Below, piece after piece: positions 2,689 through 62,931 of a stretch of 64,000 nt of DNA. Made by a program: the position numbers and the translations under genes. The notes under the pieces were generated by a model, which saw only the letters and a list, made by a program, of their open reading frames with translations, was not told where the DNA came from and did not search any database. Position 1 is the first letter of the stretch. The number at the start of each line of letters is the position of its first letter. Source of the DNA: Candidatus Zambryskiibacteriota bacterium (GTDB lineage Bacteria > Patescibacteriota > Minisyncoccia > Phycocordibacterales > WO2-35-19); contig JASNZL010000007.1 of assembly GCA_048499675.1 (NCBI GenBank), forward strand, positions 2,401-66,400, written 5' to 3'.

Positions 2689-3912
2689 TTAAAAATTAAT
2701 AAAGACTTCTTTCATTTGTTCAGCTATCAAATCCCAATTGTATTTTTGTTTTACCATATTAAAAGCATTTTCTACAACTTGGTTTCTGTTTGAATCATTC
2801 AAAACTCTATTGACAGTTTTCGCAATACTCTCTGGATTTTCTGGTTCACAAAAGTATCCAGTTTGCACTTCTATACCACTTTGCAGTGGCTTCGCGAGAT
2901 CTACGAGAAAATCTGGTATACCACCAACTGGTGTTGCAATCACAGGAATTTTACAAGCCATCGCTTCAACAAACGAAATGCCGAAACCTTCAGAAAGTGA
3001 TGGTCTTATAAAGATATCACAAGATTTCAAATATTTTGGAAGTTCATTGTGAGAAACAAATCCCAAAAAACAGATTCGAGCTTGGAGATTGGAGCTTAGA
3101 ACTTTTTGTTTTAATGCCTCCTCTAGAGACCCAGATCCCAAAATCACAAATTTAACATTGTCCGGTAAAAATTTTAAAGCATCTATCACATCTCCCACCC
3201 CATTTTTCTTCACCAACCTCGACGATGTCACAAGCGCAACATCATTTTCTTCCATTCCCATTTCCTTTCTGATTTTTTCTCGTTCTTCGTAACTCGTATT
3301 TCGTACCTCAAATTTATCCACATCTACTCCATTCGGAATTATGCTCACTTTCCCCTCATACCCAAACCTTTCCGCCCTATCTTTTAGAAACTGGCTAAGC
3401 ACTGTAAGATGATAAGTTCTTTTGAGAGCCATCTTCCAAGAAAAATTGATGAGACCAAACCAACGTTTGGCAAAATGTTCTTCTGAATCACCTTCTTGGA
3501 GGTTTAAAATTATTGGTACTTTATGTTTAGAAAAAATATTTGCAATATAAGCCCCCCCAGAAGCAAAGGTCGCCATAATGCACCAATAAAAATCATAATG
3601 ATTTATATTATTTAATTTTAGTGTTTTTAATGCGCCCCAAAAAGGGAGCAATATTTTATCCAAAGTTTTGAAACCAGATCCAACTCTATAAACAGAAACA
3701 TTCCCTATTTTTTCAAATTTTGGGAGTTTCCTATCAAATCGCGCTGTAATCATATCAAACTGTAGATCTGAAATCCTGTCTGTTATTTCTTTGACCGCCA
3801 CCTCTGCCCCACCCACAAATGGGTAATATGCCGTTGAAAATATGAGTATTTTTTTTGATTGTTCCACAGCATTAAGCATATCAAAAACACTCCCCCTTAT
3901 CCAATTATCCAA
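2689..3912 (-). CDS. Glycosyltransferase family 4 (GT1 superfamily)
   Basis: C-terminal EGFGISFVEAMACKIPVIATPVGGIPD motif, which is the EX7E/GT4 signature. Confidence 0.8.
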   Translation of the reverse strand: MDNWIRGSVFDMLNAVEQSKKILIFSTAYYPFVGGAEVAVKEITDRISDLQFDMITARFDRKLPKFEKIGNVSVYRVGSGFKTLDKILLPFWGALKTLKLNNINHYDFYWCIMATFASGGAYIANIFSKHKVPIILNLQEGDSEEHFAKRWFGLINFSWKMALKRTYHLTVLSQFLKDRAERFGYEGKVSIIPNGVDVDKFEVRNTSYEEREKIRKEMGMEENDVALVTSSRLVKKNGVGDVIDALKFLPDNVKFVILGSGSLEEALKQKVLSSNLQARICFLGFVSHNELPKYLKSCDIFIRPSLSEGFGISFVEAMACKIPVIATPVGGIPDFLVDLAKPLQSGIEVQTGYFCEPENPESIAKTVNRVLNDSNRNQVVENAFNMVKQKYNWDLIAEQMKEVFINF

Positions 3913-8907: not shown

Positions 8908-9331
8908 AGTTTATCACAATAGACCAAAAATCAAACTGTGAATTAGATATAGAGAATTTAAAAGTTAAAAAGGCGCAAGTTAGAAAGTTCATACACGACA
9001 CCAATACACCTGCCCGCAATGCTATCGCATACGCGTTGCAGGCGGGCGAATGTATTCGAATGACACGAATATAGAGTTAGAAAGTTAAAAAGTTTAGAAA
9101 GTAACCCACTAATCACACTAATACATGCGAATCATAGCGAATGGGAGATGGGAAAGGAATAAGCTTATTTAAAAATTTTAAATTGAAAATTGAATCATTG
9201 AAAATTTATTGCGTAAAGCAACGTTGTTGCCACGCAACTTTACGTTGGAAATTGAAAATTTTAAATTAAAAATTATATAAGTACTAGTAATTAGTGGGTT
9301 AAAATTGAAAATTAAAAAGAAAAAGAAAACG

Positions 9332-9374
9332 CCCCGTTCCGCTTTGGGCTCTTGCGAGCCCTTGCGGAACGGGG
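9332..9374 (-). terminator. Rho-independent terminator of the GC-rich gene
   Basis: Hairpin CCCCGTTCCGC…GCGGAACGGGG followed on the minus strand by TTTTCTTTTTCTTTTT. Confidence 0.7.
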
Positions 9375-9380
9375 AGTTTG

Positions 9381-10322
9381 TTAGTTGATTGTGCCGAGCT
9401 TCTCGGCAAAGGCGTGGTTGCCCGACCACTTCGGATCAACCATCTTGCGCCCGCATTCCTCTTCTTCGGAAGAGGGCGGGAAGATTTCGCACCCCTTCTC
9501 GATCACCCAATCGGGGGCGTTTTTCGCCTCAAGGGCCTCGAGGAGGTTTTCGACGAGCTTTTCGGTGTGCTCGTCAAGACCGTCGCCACGAGCGGTATCG
9601 TCGAGCGCGATTACCGCGTCGAGAACCTGACCCGCCTTGACGCAGAGCCAAGCGGGCAAACGCTCGTCTTTGTTCTCAGCAACCTGAGCGGTCGTCGCAA
9701 CGACCACCCCATCCTGCCCGAAGAGAAACTTCTCGAGCTCCTCGGTCGGAGCCTTCAAGAATACCTCTTTCGGGTTTGCCTCGTTGTGGAGGATGTAAAA
9801 TCCATTCCCCCACGCCTTAGCGACCGCCGGAAGGAAAACCTCCCAGAAGTCATTCCCGAGGAGATACTTCCCCTGGAAGACCCTCGTGACCAACTGGGTC
9901 GTTTTGGCGGGGTGAATATTTTTCCCCCCCAAGAAACCCCCAAGGAAGTTTTTCAACTTCCTGACGGGATCGTCGAGCTCGCGAGCGGAGCTCGTTTCGC
10001 TTGCGACCGGCTTTTTGGGAGCCGGAGTCGGAAGCGGAACCTGCGGGATGGCCGTAACCGGTTTCCGCGTCTCCTGCTCCATTTCGACCACTTCGAGCGG
10101 AGAGATCTCCGCCCTGATTGTCGCGGGCTTCGGGCGGAGGGCTTTCTCCAGCCCGAGCCAGAATTCGGGGTCCCCCCCGACAATCTGACGAATGGCGTCC
10201 GCCCTCGCCTCGGCGGGGGCGCCGAGGTTGTCCAAAGTTTGAATCGCCCCACGCATTTCCGCGAGACGCTTTTGAATGATTTGCTTCAGGCTTTTCATCG
10301 CCTTTTTTCTCCTTTTTTTCAA
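9381..10322 (-). CDS. Hypothetical protein encoded by a compositionally foreign (~58% GC) CDS
   Basis: 313 aa starting MKKRRKK… It has an AGGAG ribosome-binding site, its own consensus promoter and its own terminator. GC content is roughly double that of every neighbour. The overlapping ORFs on both strands are Arg-rich artefacts typical of high-GC DNA. Confidence 0.6.
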   Translation of the reverse strand: MKKRRKKAMKSLKQIIQKRLAEMRGAIQTLDNLGAPAEARADAIRQIVGGDPEFWLGLEKALRPKPATIRAEISPLEVVEMEQETRKPVTAIPQVPLPTPAPKKPVASETSSARELDDPVRKLKNFLGGFLGGKNIHPAKTTQLVTRVFQGKYLLGNDFWEVFLPAVAKAWGNGFYILHNEANPKEVFLKAPTEELEKFLFGQDGVVVATTAQVAENKDERLPAWLCVKAGQVLDAVIALDDTARGDGLDEHTEKLVENLLEALEAKNAPDWVIEKGCEIFPPSSEEEECGRKMVDPKWSGNHAFAEKLGTIN

Positions 10323-10381
10323 ACAACTAACACCAGCATCTGCTTATTACAAACAGAAGCCAAAATATCAATCTACCCTAT

Positions 10382-10410
10382 ATTATAGCAAATTGTGTAT
10401 AAAAAGTCAA
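10382..10410 (-). promoter_or_regulatory. Perfect sigma70 consensus promoter (TTGACT-N17-TATAAT) for the GC-rich gene
   Basis: Minus-strand read TTGACTTTTTATACACAATTTGCTATAAT. The -35 box abuts the upstream gene's terminator stem. Confidence 0.6.
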
Positions 10411-10434
10411 CCCCGCCGTTAACAACTGGCGGGG
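10411..10434 (-). terminator. Terminator hairpin of the 10435-11115 gene
   Basis: CCCCGCCGTTAACAACTGGCGGGG followed on the minus strand by a T-rich run. Confidence 0.6.
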
Positions 10435-11115
10435 TCATATTTTGATGCCTCTTATTCTCTTTTGAAAACATTCCGCAATCATTCTGCAGAACCGCTTCCT
10501 TTTTTCCCTATAAATAATGTATTCGGGAATGAGAACGAAGTGATTTATTTTTCTTGCTTTAATTCTTTCTTCTGTACCATTTTCTTTTGGCGCGTATTGC
10601 CAAAAGTCACTCCTTGGGTTAAGAATCCGAGTCCAGCCGGAAACGGTATCCTCACCACTTTTTTTCAAAAAAGATGACAGCCCTCCTTTATGAACAAAAA
10701 GGTCTGATTGGAAATTTTCCTCCGAATATGTCGGTGAATCCTTCTCCCAAAGATCTCGAAGCTTGGCAGAAAATTCAGTATCAAAGTTGAATAAATCAAC
10801 CATAATAAAGAACTTCGGAACTAACGGGAGATAGAACAGCGCATCGGTCTTATGGGACCAGTCTGCACTAGTTCCGGTTGTGGGGATAAAAGCGAGACCG
10901 CTTGAGTCAAGCCCCATTTTTTTAAGTTGGTTTCTCACACCGTGATACAAAAGTTTCGCAACATCTGTATCTGGGTGTTTATAACCCTCCCTTACAGCTT
11001 TGTTAATAATGAACCTAAAAGATCCATCAAAACTATTCAGATTATACCCGAATGCACCAAAATCATGGCGCCCAAGTACTAAATCCTCAAACGCTCTGCT
11101 ATTTTTATAGTGCAC
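10435..11115 (-). CDS. Hypothetical protein
   Basis: 226-aa ORF with host-like composition and no motif I can assign. Confidence 0.4.
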   Translation of the reverse strand: MHYKNSRAFEDLVLGRHDFGAFGYNLNSFDGSFRFIINKAVREGYKHPDTDVAKLLYHGVRNQLKKMGLDSSGLAFIPTTGTSADWSHKTDALFYLPLVPKFFIMVDLFNFDTEFSAKLRDLWEKDSPTYSEENFQSDLFVHKGGLSSFLKKSGEDTVSGWTRILNPRSDFWQYAPKENGTEERIKARKINHFVLIPEYIIYREKRKRFCRMIAECFQKRIRGIKI

Positions 11116-11213: not shown

Positions 11214-11537
11214 TTAGTTTTTTCCAATTGACTTAATGAATCCTCCCAACATACAAGATATTTCTTCACAAATTCCAATCATATTATCAAAATCCTTTTT
11301 GTTTATATAACTAAACTCTATAGCCAAAAATAGCATTGATTTTACTTCCCCGCATGAACCTTTTGATATGAAGGGAAATCTTTCTAACTCTTTGCTACCT
11401 TTTCTCTCTATTCCTTCTGCAATATTGTTCATTATAGAAACTGAAGCTCTTTGTATTTGATCTTTAAAACCGTAGTCTTTGCAATTTTTAAAAACCGAAT
11501 AGACAGAAAATGTTAACTCTTTAGATTTTAACCACAC
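11214..11537 (-). CDS. Four-helix-bundle protein (23S rRNA intervening-sequence protein / Avd-related family, TIGR02436-like)
   Basis: Contains …QIQRASVSIMNNIAEGIERKGSKELERFPFISKGSCGEVKSMLFLA…, matching the family signature. Confidence 0.65.
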   Translation of the reverse strand: MWLKSKELTFSVYSVFKNCKDYGFKDQIQRASVSIMNNIAEGIERKGSKELERFPFISKGSCGEVKSMLFLAIEFSYINKKDFDNMIGICEEISCMLGGFIKSIGKN

Positions 11538-12520: not shown

Positions 12521-12674
12521 ATGTTATTATTTTTCAATTTTCAATTTAGAATTTTCATTAAATTTTCAATGATCCAATTTTTAATTTTGTATTTTATTTA
12601 TAATTTTCTTTACGTTTTTTGTTTTGATTTTTGTTCTATAATTTTTTATTTGGGATTTGTTTAGTATTTCGGGT

Positions 12675-19868: not shown

Positions 19869-19896
19869 AATAAAACTTTAGATTAAAAACTTAGTT

Positions 19897-20002
19897 CTGG
19901 CGGCTACCTACTTTCCCCTTTACGAGTATCATCGGCACTATAGAGCTTAACTTCCGTGTTCGGAATGAGAACGGGTGTGGCCTCTATGTTAAACCACCAA
20001 AA
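19897..20002 (-). rRNA. rrf: 5S ribosomal RNA
   Basis: Minus-strand read …CCACACCCGTTCTCATTCCGAACACGGAAGTTAAGC…GTAGGTAGCCGCCAG. Confidence 0.8.
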
Positions 20003-20081: not shown

Positions 20082-20155
20082 TGGTAGGGCGTGTGGGATA
20101 TGAACCCACATCCTCTCCCTTATAGGGAGATGTCTTGCTCTTAGACCACCGCCCC
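20082..20155 (-). tRNA. tRNA-like element in the 23S-5S spacer with an encoded CCA and a non-canonical anticodon loop (CUAUAAG)
   Basis: The minus strand folds as GGGGCGG-TG-GTCT-AAGAGCA-AGAC-A-TCTCC-CTATAAG-GGAGA-GGAT-GTGGG-TTCATAT-CCCAC-ACGCCCT-A-CCA. All four arms form, but the implied anticodon AUA is not a known species. Confidence 0.4.
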
Positions 20156-21638: not shown

Positions 21639-22467
21639 CTGTCGTATTGCCCCAATTACTTGAGGGGTCGGACTATATCTTCACCCTTATTTTATATAAA
21701 ATAAGGGGTTCGGCGTATTAGCATGAAGTCTAGCTTCACACTCCAACCACTTAAGGTTAAGTCTCTACGGGGTCATAACCCAATTTATATTTCATGGACG
21801 GAATAATATTATTTTCTATAATTCCAAATAATTTCGAAATACTAGATGTCTTAAATCTAATTCTGTAATACTCTTTATCTTTATTTAGAGTCCCCTCTAA
21901 ACCAAATTCTTTTAGAGACCGCAATAATTTCTCTTGGTCACTTTTTGAAAATTGTTGAGTATTCAGATACACATTATTTTTTCCACATCTACTTCCGTCA
22001 TCCATAAACCATACTGCCAATATTATTGGATCTAATTTTAGATCAGGAATACATTTTTTCTTATTCCTATAAAACAAATCCATCATTTTGGTAAATTCAG
22101 GATGTTGTTTGGTAAAGAATCTATATGCAATCCGCGCACCATTTCCTTTTCGAGATTTTGGTCCACTTCTTGATAAATTTTTTAAGATTGAGAATTTCCA
22201 TTCAACATACTCTTTTTGAGTTATTGAATGATTAACTTCCAAAAATGCATTTTTTCTTCCTTTTACTCGACGAATATATCCGTCTCCTAAAAGAGTTCCG
22301 ATAATAAATGACTTCTGTAATTGAGTTAGACTTCCCTCGGTATTGTCCATATTACTAATTATATCATTTGATATAACGCCTGTTTATGGAGTCCACCGAT
22401 ATAAGCCAAATTTTTTTATATGAGATTACTCTCATAGGCACCCCGATGTGTTGTAACAACAAGTTAA
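21639..22467 (-). mobile_element. Group I-like intron in 23S domain V (after …GGCACC; E. coli ~2449 site) encoding a LAGLIDADG homing endonuclease
   Basis: The exon resumes at CGATGTCGGCTCATC. The insert contains a 594-nt ORF. Confidence 0.65.
21757..22350 (-). CDS. LAGLIDADG homing endonuclease (two-motif type)
   Basis: LLGDGYI and WFMDDGS motifs; located inside the 23S intron. Confidence 0.8.
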   Translation of the reverse strand: MDNTEGSLTQLQKSFIIGTLLGDGYIRRVKGRKNAFLEVNHSITQKEYVEWKFSILKNLSRSGPKSRKGNGARIAYRFFTKQHPEFTKMMDLFYRNKKKCIPDLKLDPIILAVWFMDDGSRCGKNNVYLNTQQFSKSDQEKLLRSLKEFGLEGTLNKDKEYYRIRFKTSSISKLFGIIENNIIPSMKYKLGYDPVET

Positions 22468-23017
22468 GGTGCCGAACTCCGCCGTCGCTCTGGACGCTTA
22501 GGCGGAACCAGCCTGTTATCCCCGGAGTAGCTTTTGTCCGATAATCTTTTGCCGCGTCTAACGCGAACAATCGGTTCACTTAGCTCTGCTTTCGCATCTG
22601 CTCCTCATGTACGAGTTGCAGTTAAGCCAGCTTGTGCCTATACACTATCGCCATGGTTTCCATTCACGGCTAGCTGACCTTAATAGGCTCCTCCGTTACT
22701 CTTTGGGAGGATAGCGCCCCACTAAAACTGCCCACCAGACACTGTTTCTTTACGTTTTTGCCGTAGAGATTAGAAAATATATCAATACAGAGTGGTATTT
22801 CACTGACGACTCCATGCTCCCCAAAAGGAACACTTCAAAGTCTCCCACCTATGCTACGCAGTAAAAACATATCCTCAATGCCAAGTTGCAGTAAAGCTTC
22901 CGGGGTCTTTTCGTCTAACTGCAGGTAACCGGCATCTTCACCGGTATTGTATTTTCACCGAGCGAGTCCCCGAGACAGTTCCCCAGTCGTTACACCATTC
23001 GTGCGCGTCTGAACTTC

Positions 23018-23373
23018 ATGTCTCGTTTTTTGTTTGCGTTATCAATCGCAAACTTACGATTTCTCTTATTTCTAAGAGCATAGACTATATCTTCATCTTA
23101 AGAGAACCTATAAATTTTATCTTAAGAGTCGGCGTGTTATAACAATGTTTTCTCAAATTTAATTGAGGCATTTGCTATCCGTTCATTTCTGAACAAGTCG
23201 TTACGGGTTCACGATTTGTCCAAATTAATATTTGGTCACAAATCGCAATTCCCACGGTATTATCTTTCCTTCAACATTCTTATCCTTGAATAAGAACTCC
23301 AGTTAAGACTTCACCGTTATTAGCCGAATTTTTTCATCGAGATTACTCTCGAAGCTGGCAATTCAATTACCAG
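23018..23373 (-). mobile_element. ORF-less intron-like insertion in 23S domain IV (after GGTAGCGAAATTCCTTGTC; E. coli ~1931 site)
   Basis: The exon resumes at AAGTTCAGACGCGCACGAATGG. The insert is ~356 nt. Confidence 0.5.
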
Positions 23374-23399
23374 ACAAGGAATTTCGCTACCTTAGGACG

Positions 23400-24148
23400 A
23401 TTCATTTCTTTTTATTACTCAGTTAGTAGCTACTGAGAGCCTCATTGTCGCCAATGAGATCGGACTATATCTTCCCAAAATGATTTCTCGCTTTAGGTCT
23501 AGCGTATAGTCTCTGAGGATTTTCTGATAAGGAATTTTTATAATCTTTTAAATTATACTTCCTTGTTCTTCCTTTTCCTTCGTTCAATTTCTCTCGAAGT
23601 TCTACAACCTTTAACATTCCGTCATTACTTAAATGTTCTTTTTTGAAAACCATTTTTGCAATTTGGGAGAAGATTGAGAAATTTTTCTTCTTATTTGAAG
23701 AAAGAAAAGAATATTTTTCAAAGAAAGGTATTATCCTTTCTTCAATAGCGACAGGATTCTCTACTACGTAGTAGCAAACCCCGTCTTTTCGTTCTTGCAA
23801 TCTTCCACATCCTAAATGATGTTTCATTAACGCAAGAACAGTTTTGTCGCGTTGAGCAACATTTAAAGTCAGTACCACTTGCCATCCAAGAGAATGATCT
23901 TCTCTTTTTCTTAGTGAGACATTGAAGCTTCCTTCTCCGTCCACAAAGCCAGCAATATAGTTTCCTATATTTTGAGGAATTGACTTAAGCCACGAAATAT
24001 CTTTCATTTTTAATTCGTTGCTTATCAGAATCTTTCCTGCGGATTGTCTGCACCGCTACATTTTTACTGCCATTTCGATTTATGACGAGTAGTAGACGGA
24101 TACTCAGAGTTTCCCGCATTTAGCTAGATTTTATAACTACAATTATCC
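23400..24148 (-). mobile_element. Intron-like insertion in the 23S (after GGCGATAACTATAA; E. coli ~1917 region) encoding a LAGLIDADG endonuclease
   Basis: The exon resumes at CGTCCTAAGGTAGCG. The insert contains a 543-nt ORF. Confidence 0.55.
23465..24007 (-). CDS. LAGLIDADG homing endonuclease (single-motif type)
   Basis: YIAGFVDGEGSF motif; located inside the 23S insertion. Confidence 0.75.
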   Translation of the reverse strand: MKDISWLKSIPQNIGNYIAGFVDGEGSFNVSLRKREDHSLGWQVVLTLNVAQRDKTVLALMKHHLGCGRLQERKDGVCYYVVENPVAIEERIIPFFEKYSFLSSNKKKNFSIFSQIAKMVFKKEHLSNDGMLKVVELREKLNEGKGRTRKYNLKDYKNSLSENPQRLYARPKARNHFGKI

Positions 24149-24389
24149 TTATAGTTATCGCCGACATTCACCAGGGCTTACAACAGTCAGCATACATCAT
24201 GCTGAGTACGAGAATTTTCAATTTGAAAATTCATACGCAGTATGATGTACACCGCCATTGTTTAACCTTCTGGCATTGGTCAGGTGTCACCCCCTATACA
24301 TCCTCTTACGAGTTCGCAGGGAGCTGTGTTTTTGATAAACAGTCGCCAGGGATTCTTTAGCTGCGGCCCAACCGCACCTCGCTACGCTC

Positions 24390-24520
24390 GGGCGGAATTC
24401 TCAATTTTTAATTTTTAATTTTCATTCAATTTTCAATGTATTAATTTCAAGTTTTTAACATTGTAAATTAGAAATTATTTGAAAATTTTAAATTGTAAAT
24501 TTTAAATTCCGTGCCGAATG
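24390..24520 (-). repeat. AT-rich intervening sequence (IVS) in the 23S, family member with similar termini
   Basis: Flanked by CCTCGCTACGCTCGGGCGG and CCGTGCCGAATGCAATGAGGCACGG, with an interior of AATTTTCAATTTT-type repeats. Confidence 0.6.
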
Positions 24521-25089
24521 CAATGAGGCACGGTCGGGCAGGCCTTATACCGAAGGTACGGCCGCTTTTTTGCCGAGTTCCTTGGGGACCTCTCACTCGT
24601 TCGCCTTGGTCTTCTCGACCTGACTACCTGTGTCGGTTTACGGTACGGTCTATTTATGCTTAACCTTAGAAGATTTTCTTGGAAGCGTGCTTTACAAACT
24701 CTTATCTGCCGAGGCTTCAAATTGTCATACTGCTTGAGGTGCAATTAAATGCAGTCTTGCGGATTTACCTACAAGACACCCTTACAGCACAAACGCAAAT
24801 CCAATAATGCGCTTTGTATACTACACTCCGTCTCTCCATCGAACATAAACAGGTGCAGGAATATTAACCTGCTGTCCATCGGGTCCGACTTTCGTCATAC
24901 CCTTAGGCCCGACTAACCCTTCCCTGATTGTCATCGGAAAGGAAACCTTAGTCTTTCGGCGCGCGCAGTTTTCATGCGCGTTGTGGTTACTTGTGCCAAC
25001 ATTCTTACTTCGTAACGCTCCAGCATGGGTCACCCCTTTGCCTTCACAGCGGATACGAATACTCTCCTACCGCGCCAGCCACACTACGC

Positions 25090-25250
25090 TACGCTCCGTG
25101 CGCTGGAATTTTCAATTTAAAATTTTCAATTTTCAATCAATTTTCAATGTCTTAATTTTGAAATTTAGAAATTAAGAATTTAATCATTGTTTAGAAATTA
25201 GAAATTAAAAATTAGAAATTCCGCACGAAATGCAATGTAGTGCGGCCGAC
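25090..25250 (-). repeat. AT-rich IVS in the 23S, family member
   Basis: Flanked by CACTACGCTACGCTCCGTGCGCTGG and CCGCACGAAATGCAATGTAGTGCGG. Confidence 0.6.
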
Positions 25251-25318
25251 ACCCTCAGTTTCGGTACATAGCTTAGCCCCGATTATCTTCGGCGCAGAAT
25301 CTCTGAATGAGTGAGCTG

Positions 25319-25361
<43 letters not shown>

Positions 25362-25940
25362 CATTGTCGGAGAAATTTCACCACCTTAAGTGCACTTAGC
25401 TATGATTTAGGGACCTTAAATTGAGATCATGGGCTGTTTCCCTTTTGACGAACGGAGCTTAGCCCCCGCCGTCTAACTGCCACGCTTTCACCCACACACT
25501 AAGTTTTCGATAGTTTTCAACGCGCTTTGCGCAATCAAAAACTTAGTGTGCGGGTTAACTATTGGTATTCGGAGTTTGATAGGTCTAGCGAGATTTCTCC
25601 CTGTCCAGACCTTCCAGTGCTCTACCCCCAATAGGAACGCGTGACGCGAACCCAAAAGCTCTTTCGGAGAGAACCAGCTATTACCAGGTTCGATTAGCTT
25701 TTCACTCCTTACCACAGGTCATCCGAAGGAATCGCACGACCAACCGGTTCGGGCCTCCATCTCGCTTTCGCGAGACTTCACCCTGCCCATGGCAAGCTCA
25801 CCTGGCTTCGGGTCTAATGTATACGACATAAAATTTCGCGCTATTCACGCTCGCTTTCACTATGCCTAACGCGGGTCGACCGCTTCGGCTGCCACATACA
25901 TTAACTCGTTGGCTCATTCTTCAATAGGCACGCCATGACC

Positions 25941-26111
25941 GTCACACCTCGCTACACTCGGTGACGGAATTTTCAATTTAAAATTTAAAATTTAAAAATA
26001 ATTTTCAATATCCCAATTCTCAATTAAGAAAATGGAAATTTAATCATTATTTAGAAATTAGAAATTAAAAATTAGAAATTCCGTTGCAACGAATGCACTG
26101 AGGTGCAACGG
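25941..26111 (-). repeat. AT-rich IVS in the 23S, family member
   Basis: Flanked by GTCACACCTCGCTACACTCGGTGAC and CCGTTGCAACGAATGCACTGAGGTGCAACGG. Confidence 0.6.
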
Positions 26112-26166
26112 CTCTGACTCCTTGTAAGCATATGGTTTCAGGTCTATTTCACCGCCCTCACCGGGC

Positions 26167-26208
<42 letters not shown>

Positions 26209-26646
26209 TAGAAATATATTTAGCCTTACCGGTTAGTTCCGGCAGATTCCCCCGAGCTATTCGTGTCTCGAGGTACTCAAGAACAACAGCAAAAAAGATT
26301 ATTTGTTTTCGACTACGGGGCTATTACCCTCTGGGGCGCTTCTTTCCAGAAGCTTCTTCTAACAAATAATTTTGTAACTTTTCTCGTATAAATACGACGC
26401 TATCGTCTTACAACCCCCGCACACTCACTTTGTCATCGTTGCATTGTGTTTTTATAAAATTTCATTGCACATCCGATTAGCTACCGAATCTTAAATTTCG
26501 TTTACTATCAAAGATGCAACAAAACACAATGACAAAGTGAGTGTGCGGGTTTGGGCTTCTCCGCTTTCGCTCGCCGCTACTCACGGAATACTTTTTAGTT
26601 TCTTTTCCTCCTGGTACTGAAATGTTTTACTTCCCAGGGTAAGCTC

Positions 26647-26805
26647 CGTGCCTCACTACCGCTCGTCACAAAATTTTCAATTTTTAATTTTGTAATTTTC
26701 ATTGAATGTTCCAATTTTAGAATTTTCAAATTGAGACATTGAAAATTTATTGGAAACTGAAAATTGATACTTGAAAATTAGTGCTGAACGAAAGTGAAGC
26801 ACGGT
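26647..26805 (-). repeat. AT-rich IVS in the 23S 5' domain, family member
   Basis: Flanked by CCGTGCCTCACTACCGCTCGTCAC and GTGCTGAACGAAAGTGAAGCACGG. Confidence 0.55.
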
Positions 26806-27523
26806 CCTCGCAAAGCGAGGGGGTTTCCCCATTCGGAAATTTCCGGATCAAAGGTTGCTAGGCACCTCCCCGAAACTTATCGCAGCCACGCCACGTCCTT
26901 CATCGCTATTTCTAGCCAAGGCATCCACCATATGCTCTTAAATTTCCTATTAGGAAATTCAAAAACCACTTGTCCGATCATTTTAATTTAAAATGATTTA
27001 GGACTTAATTATCCTGTCTTACAAGACTACAATCATCCTGCAAGACCTTTGTCTCCATATGCCGAGCTTTTTTCTCCAGCATACAGAAACTACAATATCC
27101 TGATACAAAAAATATATCAGGAAGTCCACTTCCAACAAACAAAGACCCCTTCGACTCGCTACGCTCGCTCAGGGTAAACCCTCAGCAAAAAGAAGCTCAT
27201 CAAAAAGCGATGTTGTAGTGGAATGTACCCAGTAGTAGATTTTGGCATTGAGCAAGCTCACACATACGCAAGCGTATGTTATGCCAAAATTCACTACTGG
27301 GTTTATTTGTCAAAATACAATCGTTCCGAATTTTGTCTTCTCTACCCTGTTCTTAATTTTAGCAAGCTAAAATTAAGAACAGGATTTTGAATCATTATCT
27401 TACTCAAAAAAGAACAAAAAAATCCACTTCTCTCGAAGCGGGCTCAAACCAAGCCAAAGGGTTTTTTCTACCCTCTTTTTCGCTTCGTAGTTAAAAATCT
27501 CAATAACATAATTTGTGCTATCT

Positions 27524-40573: not shown

Positions 40574-41317
40574 TTAGTGGGTAATTACTGAATAGCGGGT
40601 CCATCTACGCTCACCTGTTTTCTTTATTTTCCCCTCGTTTATTAAACTAATAAGTTCTCTTTGAACTGTCTTTTCGCTACAACCTATTATGTGTGGGACA
40701 ATGTCTTTTATGGTTATGTTATCGTGACTTTTAATGAAATTGAGGATGTTCATCTTTCTTGTCTCTTTTCTTTTGTGTCCGTTACCATTTACACCATTAG
40801 TGTTTGTTTTGTTTTCTACTTTATCAAAATTATTTTGACTTGAAGTTGTTTGCGTAATTTTAAGTGTCTCGCTTGATTCAGAAATACTAGGATTTATATT
40901 TTCTGTGTTGGTTGAATTCTTTAATATATCTTCTACTTTTATGTGATTATTTGAATTTAGACCAAGAGAAAAATTATTCAACTCTTTTATAAAAGATTCG
41001 AATTCTTCTTTTATTATCTTTGCGTTCATTTTTGAAATCATTCCAGCAATAGAAGATATATCGAGCATCGACATAAGCTCTAGTGAATTTTTTTCTATCT
41101 CCCCTATTTGTCTTTTTGTATCATAAAAATTTGCGTCTTTTAATCTAACAGACATAGAAACTATTTCTAAAGACAATTTTTTTATCCTGTTTCTGATTTC
41201 TTCGTTTTCGTCCATTACATTTGATACAGCAAAAACAGCCGCGGATAATCTGTACGACTTATTGTATAGACTCATAAAACCATTATTTTTTTGAATTGTT
41301 GTATCCATAAGAGACAT
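40574..41317 (-). CDS. Hypothetical regulator with a C-terminal winged HTH
   Basis: C-terminus …IKDIVPHIIGCSEKTVQRELISLINEGKIKKTGERRWTRYSV. Confidence 0.4.
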   Translation of the reverse strand: MSLMDTTIQKNNGFMSLYNKSYRLSAAVFAVSNVMDENEEIRNRIKKLSLEIVSMSVRLKDANFYDTKRQIGEIEKNSLELMSMLDISSIAGMISKMNAKIIKEEFESFIKELNNFSLGLNSNNHIKVEDILKNSTNTENINPSISESSETLKITQTTSSQNNFDKVENKTNTNGVNGNGHKRKETRKMNILNFIKSHDNITIKDIVPHIIGCSEKTVQRELISLINEGKIKKTGERRWTRYSVITH

Positions 41318-41371: not shown

Positions 41372-41465
41372 ATATTATATACCTTTTGTCCGTTATTGTC
41401 AAGTACTTATTTCTAGTCTTTTTGATGTCTCTTATATTATATTATTTTGTCCTTTTTGACAACAA
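41372..41465 (-). promoter_or_regulatory. Tandemly duplicated ~40-bp promoter/operator unit upstream of the wHTH regulator gene
   Basis: Direct repeats tcctttatattatataccttttgtccgttattgtcaagtac and tctcttatattatattattttgtcctttttgacaacaatc. The first reads TTGACA-N17-TATAAT on the minus strand. Confidence 0.45.
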
Positions 41466-60453: not shown

Positions 60454-60527
60454 TCCTCAATATTAGCCGATTTCTCTCACTTTTTCAAAAGATTTTGTAT
60501 TTTGTTTTCTATCTCTTGTTTAATCGC
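60451..60527. repeat. Direct repeat copy 2 (overlaps the last 17 codons of the RT gene and supplies GAGGAA-ATG of the MazF-like gene)
   Basis: See copy 1. Confidence 0.85.
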
Positions 60528-61484
60528 AAACTGATTTCCATGTTTCAATAATCCACAATATGAAGTGAGCACATTTACATTTTCACTCTCTTTTAATGCC
60601 TTAGTTACTCTTCTTTTAGTACTTGTCCTTAAAACTCTATGATTAGGAAAATGAACCCAACCCAAAAAATCAAGTCCAGAATAAATTGTCTTTATAAACA
60701 CTTTATCCGGATGAAATTCTAGCTTTAATTTTTTTTGAAGAAAATTGGAAATTTTTGGCATAAGGTTTAACAGAATATTTTTATCACTATCAAAAATAAC
60801 AAAATCATCAGCGTATCTAATATAATATTTAATTTTTAGTTTATGTTTTACAAACTGATCAAATTTATTCATATAAACATTGACCAAAAGTTGGGAAGTT
60901 AGATTACCCAAAGGGAGACCTGTATTTGGTTTACCAATTGTATTAAAACTTTCAATTACTCTCTCCAATAACCAAACTATGTCTTTGTCTTGTATATATT
61001 CATTTAAAATATTAATCAAAATCTCGTGATTTATTGAAGCAAAAAACTTTTTTATATCGCACTTCAATATATAACATTGTTTTGTATTATTTTTTGATAC
61101 TTTTGTACCAAAAAATCTAAATCTATTTATAGCCCTATGTGTTCCTTTGTTTAATCTGCACGAATAAGAATCATATATAAAAAGTTGGTCAAAATATGGG
61201 TATAAAACTCTATGTATGGCGTGGTGCAAAAGACGATCCCTTACACTTGCCTTGTGTATGTTTCTTGGTTTTGGGTCACTTATATTAAACGCTTTGTATC
61301 CATCATGTTTGTATGTTTTGTTTTTGAGAGCATGGTGTAAATCAATAATGTTTCCTGATAAATTTAGAGCAAACTCCGCGACATCTTTTTTATCTTTTTT
61401 ACCTTTTATGAATTCCTGCCATGATTCAAAAAGATTTTTAATTGATATAATATTTTCATAATCAATTTTAATTAAATTTTTCAT
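60477..61484 (-). CDS. Diversity-generating retroelement (DGR) reverse transcriptase
   Basis: Start MKNLIKIDYENIISIKNLFESWQEFIKGKKDKKDVAEF (DGR-RT N-terminus). Motifs SVRDRLLHHA, CDIKKFFASINHEIL, the DGR hallmark GLPLGNLTSQ (SQ in place of the SP of group II RTs), and YIRYADDFVIF. No maturase or endonuclease domain. The track ORF is extended artefactually to 61535 through the 5'-UTR hairpin and G11. Confidence 0.85.
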   Translation of the reverse strand: MKNLIKIDYENIISIKNLFESWQEFIKGKKDKKDVAEFALNLSGNIIDLHHALKNKTYKHDGYKAFNISDPKPRNIHKASVRDRLLHHAIHRVLYPYFDQLFIYDSYSCRLNKGTHRAINRFRFFGTKVSKNNTKQCYILKCDIKKFFASINHEILINILNEYIQDKDIVWLLERVIESFNTIGKPNTGLPLGNLTSQLLVNVYMNKFDQFVKHKLKIKYYIRYADDFVIFDSDKNILLNLMPKISNFLQKKLKLEFHPDKVFIKTIYSGLDFLGWVHFPNHRVLRTSTKRRVTKALKESENVNVLTSYCGLLKHGNQFAIKQEIENKIQNLLKK

Positions 61485-61869
61485 ATGAATACCAATTCTA
61501 CCCCCCCCCCGAGGATTACCACAAGTAATCCTCAAAGAAAAAGAAACGTATATTCTTTGGCAAAGATTACATAAAAATTTTCCAAAAGTTGAACGATTTG
61601 GTTTAGGACAAAAGATCGAAAATTTGTTTCTTTCTATTTTGGAATTAACTTTTTCTTCCGCCTATTTATCCCTCGAACCTAAAATATTGATGCTTGGCAA
61701 GACTATATCTCGACTTGATGTCCTTAAATTTTTTATTCAGATTGCTTGGGAGAATAAACTAATTTCAACAGAACAACACATTGCACTTTCAAACAACTTA
61801 GAGGAAATTGGCCGACAACTCGGTGGTTGGAAAAAAGGTTTAAAAACAAAACTCCCACCTAAAAAATGA
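61485..61869 (+). CDS. avd: DGR accessory variability determinant (Avd-like four-helix-bundle protein); N-terminus disrupted or phase-shifted by a C11 homopolymer
   Basis: The frame beginning at TTG 61558 gives …VYSLQRLHKNFPKVERFGLGQKIENL…LISTEQHIALSNNLEEIGRQLGGWKK, matching the Avd/TIGR02436 pattern. An ATG at 61485, head-to-head with the RT start codon (CATATG), would join this frame if the C-tract were 10 or 13 nt long. Confidence 0.55.
61501..61534. promoter_or_regulatory. C11/G11 homopolymer plus a 9-bp-stem hairpin (GAGGATTAC-CACAA-GTAATCCTC) in the 5' region shared by divergent avd and RT
   Basis: Direct sequence observation. This is the only long homopolymer in the window. Confidence 0.7.
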
Positions 61870-61885
61870 TGGGAGAAATGACTAG

Positions 61886-62005
61886 TTTCGGGACGACAAT
61901 CCGATGACGGTTGTCGCCATTCCACACATTGTCGTTCGAGAAGTGGTTGACGTTAGCGTTCGGCTTACCATCACTGTTCAGATTCACGTTAGCAACGAAG
62001 AATTT
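61886..62005 (-). repeat. DGR template repeat (TR)
   Basis: ~120 nt matching the VR at 62317-62436 with 20 mismatches. Every mismatch is at a position that is A in the TR (minus strand). The TR reading frame is rich in AAC/AAT codons (…NVNLNSDGKPNANVNHFSNDNVWNGDNRHRIVV). Confidence 0.85.
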
Positions 62006-62301: not shown

Positions 62302-62931
62302 CTAAGCTACGAGGGTCTGCGGGACGACAAACCGATGACGGTAGTCGCCAAGCCACACAACGTCGCCCGAGAAGTGGTTGACGCAAGCGTCCGGCCCACC
62401 AGCACCGTACAGATGCACGAAAGCAACGAAGAATTCATCGCCCACCTTGAACAAAAAGAAGGTGGCGTATCCGTCAGTGCGGAGCCACTTCTTGTGGTTT
62501 TCCACAAAAGCAACGATTTGCTCCTGGGTCAGACAAAGATCGTCCCGTTCGCGACCAAGACTGCCGAAGATAGTTTTAAAATCGCCATCCTTGACCATCT
62601 CGTAGACCTCAACGGGAGTTTCCGGCTTTGCCTCCCCTGGGACATCCAAACCCCAGTTTTTGAACTCGGAGTCAATGCCCAAAGTGAACACATCACCGGC
62701 GGAAGAGACCATCCTTTGGCCGGTCGTGGCACGGATCGCGATTCGCTTTCCGCCGGAGATGAGGCGGAGAATTGGTTCTACCTCGACCTTCACCCAGCAG
62801 GGTTCCTTGCGGAGGAACTTTTTGAACTCTGCAATCCACTTGGTCCCGTCGGGACCAGACAGCTTCTCAAAAAAATCTGTGATTGCTCCGGCCACTTCAG
62901 CCAGAGTGTTTGTGCCGAGTACGCTTGACAT
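62302..62931 (-). CDS. DGR variable (target) protein, small and cytoplasmic, with the VR in its last ~40 codons
   Basis: 209 aa with no signal peptide. The VR is at 62317-62436 (…FFVAFVHLYGAGGPDACVNHFSGDVVWLGDYRHRFVVPQTLVA). The CDS is ~53% GC, against ~30% for the RT and avd. Confidence 0.75.
   Translation of the reverse strand: MSSVLGTNTLAEVAGAITDFFEKLSGPDGTKWIAEFKKFLRKEPCWVKVEVEPILRLISGGKRIAIRATTGQRMVSSAGDVFTLGIDSEFKNWGLDVPGEAKPETPVEVYEMVKDGDFKTIFGSLGRERDDLCLTQEQIVAFVENHKKWLRTDGYATFFLFKVGDEFFVAFVHLYGAGGPDACVNHFSGDVVWLGDYRHRFVVPQTLVA

Follow-up and report, generated by a model that had tools for sequence, protein, structure and literature searches.

The 64,000-nucleotide stretch of DNA analysed here (positions 2,401 to 66,400 of contig JASNZL010000007.1, from a Candidatus Zambryskiibacteriota bacterium; the window, below) carries on its minus strand a gene whose base composition departs sharply from that of its surroundings. 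The coding sequence (CDS) of this gene has a guanine-plus-cytosine (GC) content of 58.9%, against 35.1% in the remaining window, and its GC contents at first, second and third codon positions (GC1, GC2 and GC3) are 0.63, 0.40 and 0.74. The median GC3 across 54 open reading frames (ORFs) of the window, taken from crude ORF calls, is 0.266. In a 150-nt scan, positions 9301-10350 form the longest and most GC-rich island of the window, exceeding the 23S rRNA segments. An earlier note, made from the letters of this DNA, had described a GC-rich CDS in AT-rich surroundings and had confined the GC richness to the CDS, with a promoter, 5′ untranslated region (5′ UTR), ribosome-binding site and terminators that look native. 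Both descriptions hold, although the genome was put at ~30% GC and is at ~35%. The features of the locus are collected in Table 1.

Table 1. The GC-rich gene and the elements around it, in window positions.
Feature	Position	Strand	Details
CDS of the GC-rich gene	9381-10298	minus	305 aa; GC 0.589, GC3 0.735; ATG start
Sigma-70-type promoter	10382-10410	minus	TTGACT-N17-TATAAT with TG extended -10; 11/12 consensus positions
5′ UTR	10299-10375	minus	77 nt, AT-rich, GC 0.34; putative transcription start
5′-proximal stem-loop in the 5′ UTR	10333-10361	minus	predicted
Shine-Dalgarno sequence AGGAG	10309-10313	minus	10 nt ahead of the ATG at 10298
Translation-initiation zone	10269-10298	minus	first 10 codons; GC 0.33; predicted largely unpaired (composition and fold)
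Intrinsic terminator	9316-9379	minus	nested GC-rich hairpin (9327-9379), then T-rich tract; from sequence
Terminator hairpin of the upstream gene	10410-10435	minus	T-tract overlaps the -35 box of the GC-rich gene; from sequence
Upstream partner gene	10435-11115	minus	226 aa from GTG; no known family; ORF

At third codon positions, A and T account for 10% and 16% in this gene, against 34% and 35% in background genes, and G and C are both raised. AAG, GAG and CAG are favoured over their A-ending partners, alongside C-ending codons, and the codons TTA, CTA and TCA are not used at all on the sense strand. In the host genome, codons that end in G or C are the rare class. The GC-rich block starts ~30 nt inside the CDS, and these initial 30 nt have a GC content of 33%; in all nine family members compared, the corresponding value is between 0.30 and 0.43. 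Translational selection was considered as a cause of the high GC3 and rejected. The ORFs of the window that we take, by eye from their N-terminal sequences and without a tool, to encode L10-, S6-, EF-P-, RecA- and SSB-like proteins have GC3 values of only 0.21-0.31. Because ribosomal-type ORFs thus have ordinary GC3, and because the G-ending codons AAG, GAG and CAG are also favoured in the GC-rich gene, generic translational selection is excluded.

The CDS had been read as 313 codons from a TTG (9381-10322). The start is placed here at the ATG at 10298, on account of the spacing of the AGGAG sequence upstream of it and of the N-terminus MKSLKQI, which is common to the closest homologues. When the window is compared with two related loci, L001 and L004, the differences fall mostly at third codon positions (58-70), followed by first (20-23) and second positions (10-17). 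The ratio of nonsynonymous to synonymous substitution rates (dN/dS) is 0.12-0.23, and every family member keeps the ORF open. Since third-position changes dominate, dN/dS is low and the AlphaFold2 model described below is confident, the CDS is a real protein gene under clear purifying selection. The long ORFs that overlap it had been suspected of being artefacts, and this was confirmed: the plus-strand antisense ORF (336 aa) was rejected as a gene or as a case of dual coding, because its frame is interrupted in L001 (192 aa) and in another related locus, L007 (287 aa). It is open in the window because the sense strand lacks TTA, CTA and TCA codons.

The AlphaFold2 model of the product, built from an alignment of 47 sequences, has a predicted local distance difference test score (pLDDT) of 81 overall and of ~96 in the C-terminal domain; this model was used, as a five-sequence alignment gave a pLDDT of only 48. 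In the predicted layout, an N-terminal three-helix domain (residues 1-54) is followed by a disordered Pro/Ala-rich linker (55-110), a nine-helix all-alpha domain (111-275) and a disordered tail. The protein is acidic (isoelectric point 5.3), all-alpha in the model, and by eye has no obvious signal peptide or transmembrane segment. No match was found for it in Pfam, PHROGs or PADLOC, nor in Pfam for any of the 47 family members, nor in the Protein Data Bank (PDB) by sequence or by profile for the family, which agrees with the first impression that it belongs to no recognisable family. In addition, when Foldseek was used to compare the model with PDB and BFVD, no hit had an E value under 0.1, and neither the protein family nor the phenomenon was found described in the literature. 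The product would therefore represent a new, lineage-restricted family of cytoplasmic all-alpha proteins, with a fold that is confidently predicted and has no significant match.

The putative promoter is one of only six sites in the 64 kb that match the consensus at 11 or more of 12 positions, as expected from its earlier ranking among the strongest promoters of the window. Judging from their coordinates, the other sites of this quality include one just ahead of the 23S rRNA, one ahead of the L10-like ORF and one ahead of the target gene of a diversity-generating retroelement (DGR). Across the family the promoter takes the form cTTGACTTTTTATA...TTTGCTATAAT, after which comes an A(T/A)TTTTGC element that is likewise conserved. 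It is better conserved than the protein and is kept in loci at ~30% protein identity. The transcription start was placed ~7 nt past the -10 box, and the leader that would follow is AT-rich and contains a predicted stem-loop; in L004, L009, L010, L018 and L019, a hairpin of different sequence is found at the equivalent position. From the ribosome-binding site to position +33, the probability of being unpaired is 0.55-0.65, against 0.31 in the body of the CDS, in three of four modelled transcripts. Finally, hairpins equivalent to that of the terminator trail every family member examined. As predictions, then, the strong promoter, 5′ hairpin, strong Shine-Dalgarno sequence and 3′ hairpin that characterise stabilised, high-output mRNAs would all be present at this locus.

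A HMMER scan of 1.84 billion representatives placed 46 clusters in the family, whereas a word-indexed search recovered only four relatives. Scans of genome and metagenome contigs with close alignment gave no further loci, and broader alignment added only 3 + 2. Family members have 162-486 aa, most of them ~280-490 aa, and most share the motifs FGQDG, MPxWLCAK, LDAIEAVD, NGPDWLIEKG and (T/S)(A/S)(P/S)AR(T/K/E)L, the last of which ends the Pro/Ala-rich linker. The only source names among them are Candidatus Zambryskibacteria and Parcubacteria group, where they are listed as hypothetical proteins, and each homologue with examined genomic context lies in an AT-rich genome of the same type. In phage, plasmid and IMG/VR collections no relative was found.

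Gene order around the family is also conserved. Wherever the flank suffices, and in independent contigs, genes are arranged as Bac_transf, SecD, SecF, a gene of ~210-235 aa, the GC-rich gene, a transmembrane protein of 76-110 aa, DUF4015, a TrwB/TraG-like protein of ~600 aa and glycosyltransferases. This order is kept from 91% to ~30% protein identity. No empty syntenic site was seen, although a gene-based query could not sample genomes that lack the gene. Across the family, the gene has a GC content of 0.485-0.59 and a GC3 of 0.49-0.74, while neighbouring genes have 0.32-0.41 and 0.23-0.43, respectively, and flanks have a GC content of 0.33-0.43. In every context, even at 30% protein identity, the gene stands 10-25 GC points above its flanks. 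On this comparative evidence, the gene is not an import: it is specific to Parcubacteria of the Candidatus Zambryskibacteria type and has long been passed on vertically among them. The neighbouring genes, for SecDF, the small membrane protein, a glycosidase-like DUF4015 protein and a TrwB/TraG-like ATPase, hint at a role that may be associated with the envelope or with secretion.

The composition is not decaying. To show this, the window, L001 and L004 were placed on a star tree of three taxa, on which the direction of each third-position change was assigned. In the GC-rich gene, rates per site were 0.21 for changes from G or C to A or T (S>W) and 0.32 for the reverse (W>S), which implies an equilibrium GC3 of 0.60. 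For SecF, located 1.3 kb away, the rates were 0.45 and 0.19, with an equilibrium GC3 of 0.30. The share of S>W changes in the GC-rich gene was 0.63, against 0.86 under SecF rates (p = 1e-6), and a mild S>W excess persists in the most GC-rich clade (46 vs 27, p = 0.03). Because the implied equilibrium GC3 is ~0.60, compared with 0.30 for SecF, the GC bias is being actively maintained. Leftover donor composition cannot explain the pattern, because synonymous sites must be saturated at ~30% identity. The same figures dispose of the fallback offered in the earlier note, in which the GC content would be driven by amino acid composition: GC3 is 0.49-0.74 in the gene against 0.23-0.43 in its neighbours, and its equilibrium value is twice that of SecF.

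The mRNA of the gene is predicted to fold far more stably than expected from its composition. The 918-nt sense RNA has a minimum free energy of -429 kcal/mol, compared with -362 ± 10 kcal/mol for dinucleotide shuffles (z -6.7), and ~70% of CDS positions are base-paired in the predicted fold. Similar values are obtained with synonymous-codon shuffles, which preserve the protein, codon usage and GC content. In these, z is -6.6 for the window, -8.1 for L010, -6.4 for L012, -5.7 for L019, -5.1 for both L011 and L007, -4.8 for L018, -4.7 for L009 and -3.8 for L020, so that nine of the ten family members lie between -3.8 and -8.1. By contrast, ten control genes (SecF, DUF4015 and RecA-like) have z values between +1.8 and -2.4 (Mann-Whitney p = 1.7e-4 vs the family). 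The mRNA of the upstream partner gene is also over-folded (z -4.7 in the window, range -2.1 to -6.2, p = 6e-4), and that of the DGR target shows a weak fold excess (z -2.1). In six of six members, the fold excess of the sense strand is larger than that of the antisense strand, with a mean difference of ~15 kcal/mol, as expected if RNA helices containing G·U pairs are the selected target. A specific conserved RNA architecture was considered and found little support, as little of the structure keeps its position across members, and Rfam gave no match even at E ≤ 1. Among the ~13 DNA sequences available, a few helices do covary at homologous positions, for instance at window nt 766-789, with the pairs AUCG/CGAU, GUCG/CGAC and CUCG/CGAG. 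The selected property thus looks like dense pairing rather than one fixed architecture.

Taken together, genomic AT pressure is overridden across a whole lineage in a single gene, which belongs to a new protein family and whose mRNA is extremely folded. The explanation that we favour, with a probability of roughly 0.4-0.5, is gene-specific selection for a heavily paired, nuclease- or Rho-resistant, long-lived and high-output mRNA. The force most likely acts on this transcript alone and holds GC-rich codons in place through selection for G-C helices in the coding region. A layout that joins a strong promoter, a 5′ hairpin, an open initiation region, a paired body and a terminator maximises mRNA lifetime and output. 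Here, the near-consensus promoter with its extended -10, which falls into one class with those ahead of the rRNA and the L10-like gene, would give strong transcription. The 5′-proximal stem-loop would form part of a design for maximal output, and the A-rich, open Shine-Dalgarno region would serve, with the first 10 codons, as the translation-initiation zone. A coding region that is ~70% paired would offer few AU-rich single-stranded targets to endoribonucleases or Rho, and the strong hairpin terminator would close a unit that, as a whole, reads as a design for long-lived output. The arrangement suggests that the folding would prolong the life of the mRNA or raise its output. In a wider formulation, which we hold tentatively and at somewhat less than even odds, the transcript would be a naturally evolved 'superfolder' message of an ultra-small bacterium of the Candidate Phyla Radiation, or an RNA with a second, non-coding job, in which selection at the RNA level overrides both AT pressure and codon adaptation. 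The 'superfolder' alternative would entail lineage-wide synonymous recoding of the gene and, to a lesser degree, of its upstream partner, with the initiation zone kept open.

Several observations weigh against selection on the message. One family member, L008, has a z of only -1.9. The antisense strand folds well too (z -7.5), as Watson-Crick complementarity requires, which leaves room for a cause at the DNA level. The consensus fold of seven diverged members, computed over the region of the C-terminal domain, is modest (-15.3 vs -8.1 ± 2.4 kcal/mol, z -3.0). Among three close strains, 44 of 105 substitutions at paired sites preserve the pair, where 37.7 would be expected (z 1.7), and third positions change about as fast when paired as when unpaired. 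The synonymous substitution rate (dS) is at most slightly lowered, at 0.30-0.41 vs 0.32-0.65 in neighbouring genes. High expression, moreover, is predicted only from the quality of the promoter and of the ribosome-binding site. Finally, there are recombination mosaics at the locus, and biased gene conversion may contribute to its composition.

These mosaics are the starting point of an alternative in which GC3 is driven up by GC-biased gene conversion where recombination is frequent, template-switch correction of quasi-palindromes makes the hairpins, and both are functionless by-products of mutation. Recombination has certainly left marks here. The upstream partner gene has no DNA-level alignment to the 210-aa gene found in its place in L001 (7232-7864) and L004 (1943-2575), and the proteins are strongly divergent; since two divergent alleles sit between ~90%-identical flanks, allelic replacement by recombination is indicated. 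L007 (P0004) is itself a mosaic. It shares 87.5% identity with the window over the promoter and the initial 446 nt, and its terminator matches at 100% over 30 nt, yet the DNA of the C-terminal two thirds, although homologous and GC-rich, is unalignable. Over nt 630-810 of the CDS (~180 nt), the window and L004 do not differ at all, compared with ~18% divergence in the 5′ third; recent recombination or a recent sweep could have left this tract, or the sequence may be constrained locally. In L004, which comes from the P0003 strain, an inverted repeat of 156 nt with 98% identity between its copies (1671-1826 and 3692-3847) encloses exactly a cassette of two genes, the 210-aa one and the GC-rich one, each with its promoter and terminator. 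In a second sample, represented by L005 (1714-1902) and at 99.6-99.8% nucleotide identity, this cassette has the opposite orientation to secDF, and the orientation switches within the repeat. Either the segment truly inverts, or the assembler took a different path through the repeat. A process at the DNA level would also account for the joint rise of G and C at third positions and for the good folding of the antisense strand. Nevertheless, the 5′ UTR and the first 30 nt of the CDS would lie within the putative conversion tract and are AT-rich in all members, the GC block ends at the CDS edges, and the GC content of the upstream gene is only mildly raised although that gene recombines strongly. 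To our knowledge, a GC3 jump from ~0.26 to 0.5-0.74 also far exceeds the effects reported for biased gene conversion in bacteria, and the larger fold excess of the sense strand points to the RNA level. For these reasons, we consider gene conversion an unlikely sole explanation.

A dual-function RNA, in which the transcript would also act as a structured scaffold, decoy or regulator that requires a GC-rich fold, appears slightly less probable again. It would fit a fold excess of the size that we expect for structured non-coding RNAs and not for ordinary mRNAs, a GC island in an AT-rich genome behind a promoter of the class seen upstream of 23S rRNA, the few helices with compensatory changes, and the consensus-fold z. 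It fits poorly with the negative Rfam search, with structure that mostly lacks positional conservation, with a nearly normal dS, and with a protein that is under purifying selection and has a confident predicted fold. Improbable, and a step below the dual-function RNA, is a translational brake, in which rare G/C-ending codons and stable helices hold ribosomes back so that the protein can fold or assemble during translation or, as a variant, make expression dependent on an RNA helicase, RNase III or temperature. The use of the genome's rare codon class and the pairing of ~70% of CDS positions are what a brake would need, but the near-consensus promoter, strong Shine-Dalgarno sequence and open initiation zone point to maximal output, and no single conserved switch-like element was found. 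The explanation put forward in the earlier note, recent acquisition from a GC-rich donor without time for amelioration, or else a chimeric assembly, is effectively excluded. Its appeal lies in the atypical composition, in an rve-family integrase gene that directly follows the GC-rich gene in L001, and in the inverted repeats that bracket the cassette in L004. However, homologues in related low-GC genomes are equally GC-rich, an outcome that the note had itself named as evidence against it, and have the same neighbours, and both neighbours and promoter are conserved to ~30% protein identity. Neither the scan of 1.84 billion representatives and the contexts examined nor the phage, plasmid and viral sets traced a homologue to another genome type. 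Substitutions lack the SecF-like decay that amelioration predicts, and the GC block begins 30 nt inside the ORF. A chimera is ruled out because the same junctions and composition boundaries are found in independent assemblies from JGI, ENA, Logan and GenBank.

Selection on the message, as favoured here, can be compared with known systems. The S-layer genes slpA and rsaA, the Bacillus thuringiensis cry genes (STAB-SD) and the ompA leader provide long-lived messages with stabilisers in their UTRs. The GC-rich gene resembles them in its strong promoter, 5′ stem-loop, strong Shine-Dalgarno sequence, 3′ hairpin and monocistronic unit, but here the coding region itself is recoded, with a GC3 of 0.5-0.74 vs 0.27 in the genome and fold z values of -4 to -8. 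In engineered structured coding sequences ('superfolder' or LinearDesign-type), CDS structure extends the functional half-life of the mRNA. These share with the present gene an open 5′ end and initiation region ahead of a maximally paired, GC-enriched body; unlike them, the gene is natural, bacterial and maintained across a lineage, and its benefit is a prediction. In the literature, no natural bacterial precedent for a superfolder-type CDS was found. The GC islands formed by rRNA, tRNA and large non-coding RNAs are similar in composition, fold excess and rRNA-type promoter class, whereas this gene codes for a protein under purifying selection, has no Rfam match and shows little positionally conserved structure. 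Horizontally acquired genes and islets have an equally sharp compositional anomaly, but differ in that here the neighbours are the same throughout, a donor was not found and the substitution bias is maintained.

Compositional outliers are routinely taken as signs of horizontal transfer, and this gene, which lies 24 GC points away from its surroundings yet is ancient, syntenic and actively maintained, warns against that shortcut. If selection at the RNA level is the true cause, the gene would be an unusually clean natural case in which the structure and GC3 of a whole CDS are tuned for one gene. It would then also bear on the forces that favour GC in bacteria and on how CDS structure sets mRNA lifetime. 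The sequences also define a new, probably abundant, Zambryskibacteria-specific protein family inside a conserved envelope/secretion cluster.

The second GC-rich CDS of the window, the DGR target (62302-62931, minus), invites a further comparison. It encodes 209 aa without a Pfam match and has a GC content of 0.54 and a GC3 of 0.64, the sole further GC3 outlier among the 54 ORFs, in line with the claim that it is the only other GC-rich CDS here. It has a TTGACA-N18-TATATT promoter and a hairpin terminator. At its 3′ end, 62320-62435 matches 61889-62004 (83.6% over 116 nt) as the variable repeat and template repeat of a DGR, and nearby ORFs at 60477-61535 (minus) and 61624-61869 (plus) presumably encode, judging by eye, reverse-transcriptase-like and Avd-like proteins. 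The two GC-rich genes are alike in raised GC3, near-consensus promoter and hairpin terminator, and an Avd-like gene (11214-11537) lies near the one studied here. Unlike in DGR targets, however, strain differences in the latter are ordinary third-position changes, and the Avd-like gene is not a constant neighbour. A search for a template-repeat or variable-repeat copy of 9301-10450 within the 64-kb window (word size 7) returned the self-match only, while the same method recovered the real DGR pair. The gene was thus rejected as a DGR target, as it has no template repeat in the window.

Among the immediate neighbours, the upstream partner gene has a GC3 of 0.38 in the window and of 0.36-0.51 in relatives. 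It is present in most contexts, absent in L012, and carries the shared motifs TDALFYLP and NHFV. The Avd-like gene mentioned above is a 23S_rRNA_IVP gene (minus strand; four-helix bundle). In the window and L001 (6918-7136) it separates secF from the cassette, whereas in L004 (5581-5949) it follows DUF4015 and in L010-L012 it is absent, which makes it a mobile or variable neighbour. AT-rich AAATTGAAAATT-type repeats, in direct and inverted copies, occur at 9166-9324 and 12524-12596, in the intergenic stretch that follows the GC-rich gene and in the one that separates secD from secF; 40 nt of them are 85% complementary. Positions 9226-9238 form a small hairpin, GTTGCCACGCAAC.

Elsewhere in the window, the sole perfect 12/12 promoter match (TTGACA-N17-TATAAT) is at 41374-41402 (minus), upstream of a 247-aa ORF (40574-41317). 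The 23S rRNA (22429-26953, minus) spans 4.5 kb for a 2.9-kb model and thus contains insertions. By eye, we take ORFs at 23465-24007 (minus, inside the 23S) and 21757-22350 (minus, just downstream) to be LAGLIDADG-like; 23S rRNA with insertions and such ORFs is typical of bacteria of the Candidate Phyla Radiation. Lastly, ARAGORN made the unusual call of a tRNA-Tyr with anticodon 'ata' at position 33 (20082-20155, minus), which adjoins the 5S rRNA (19895-20001).

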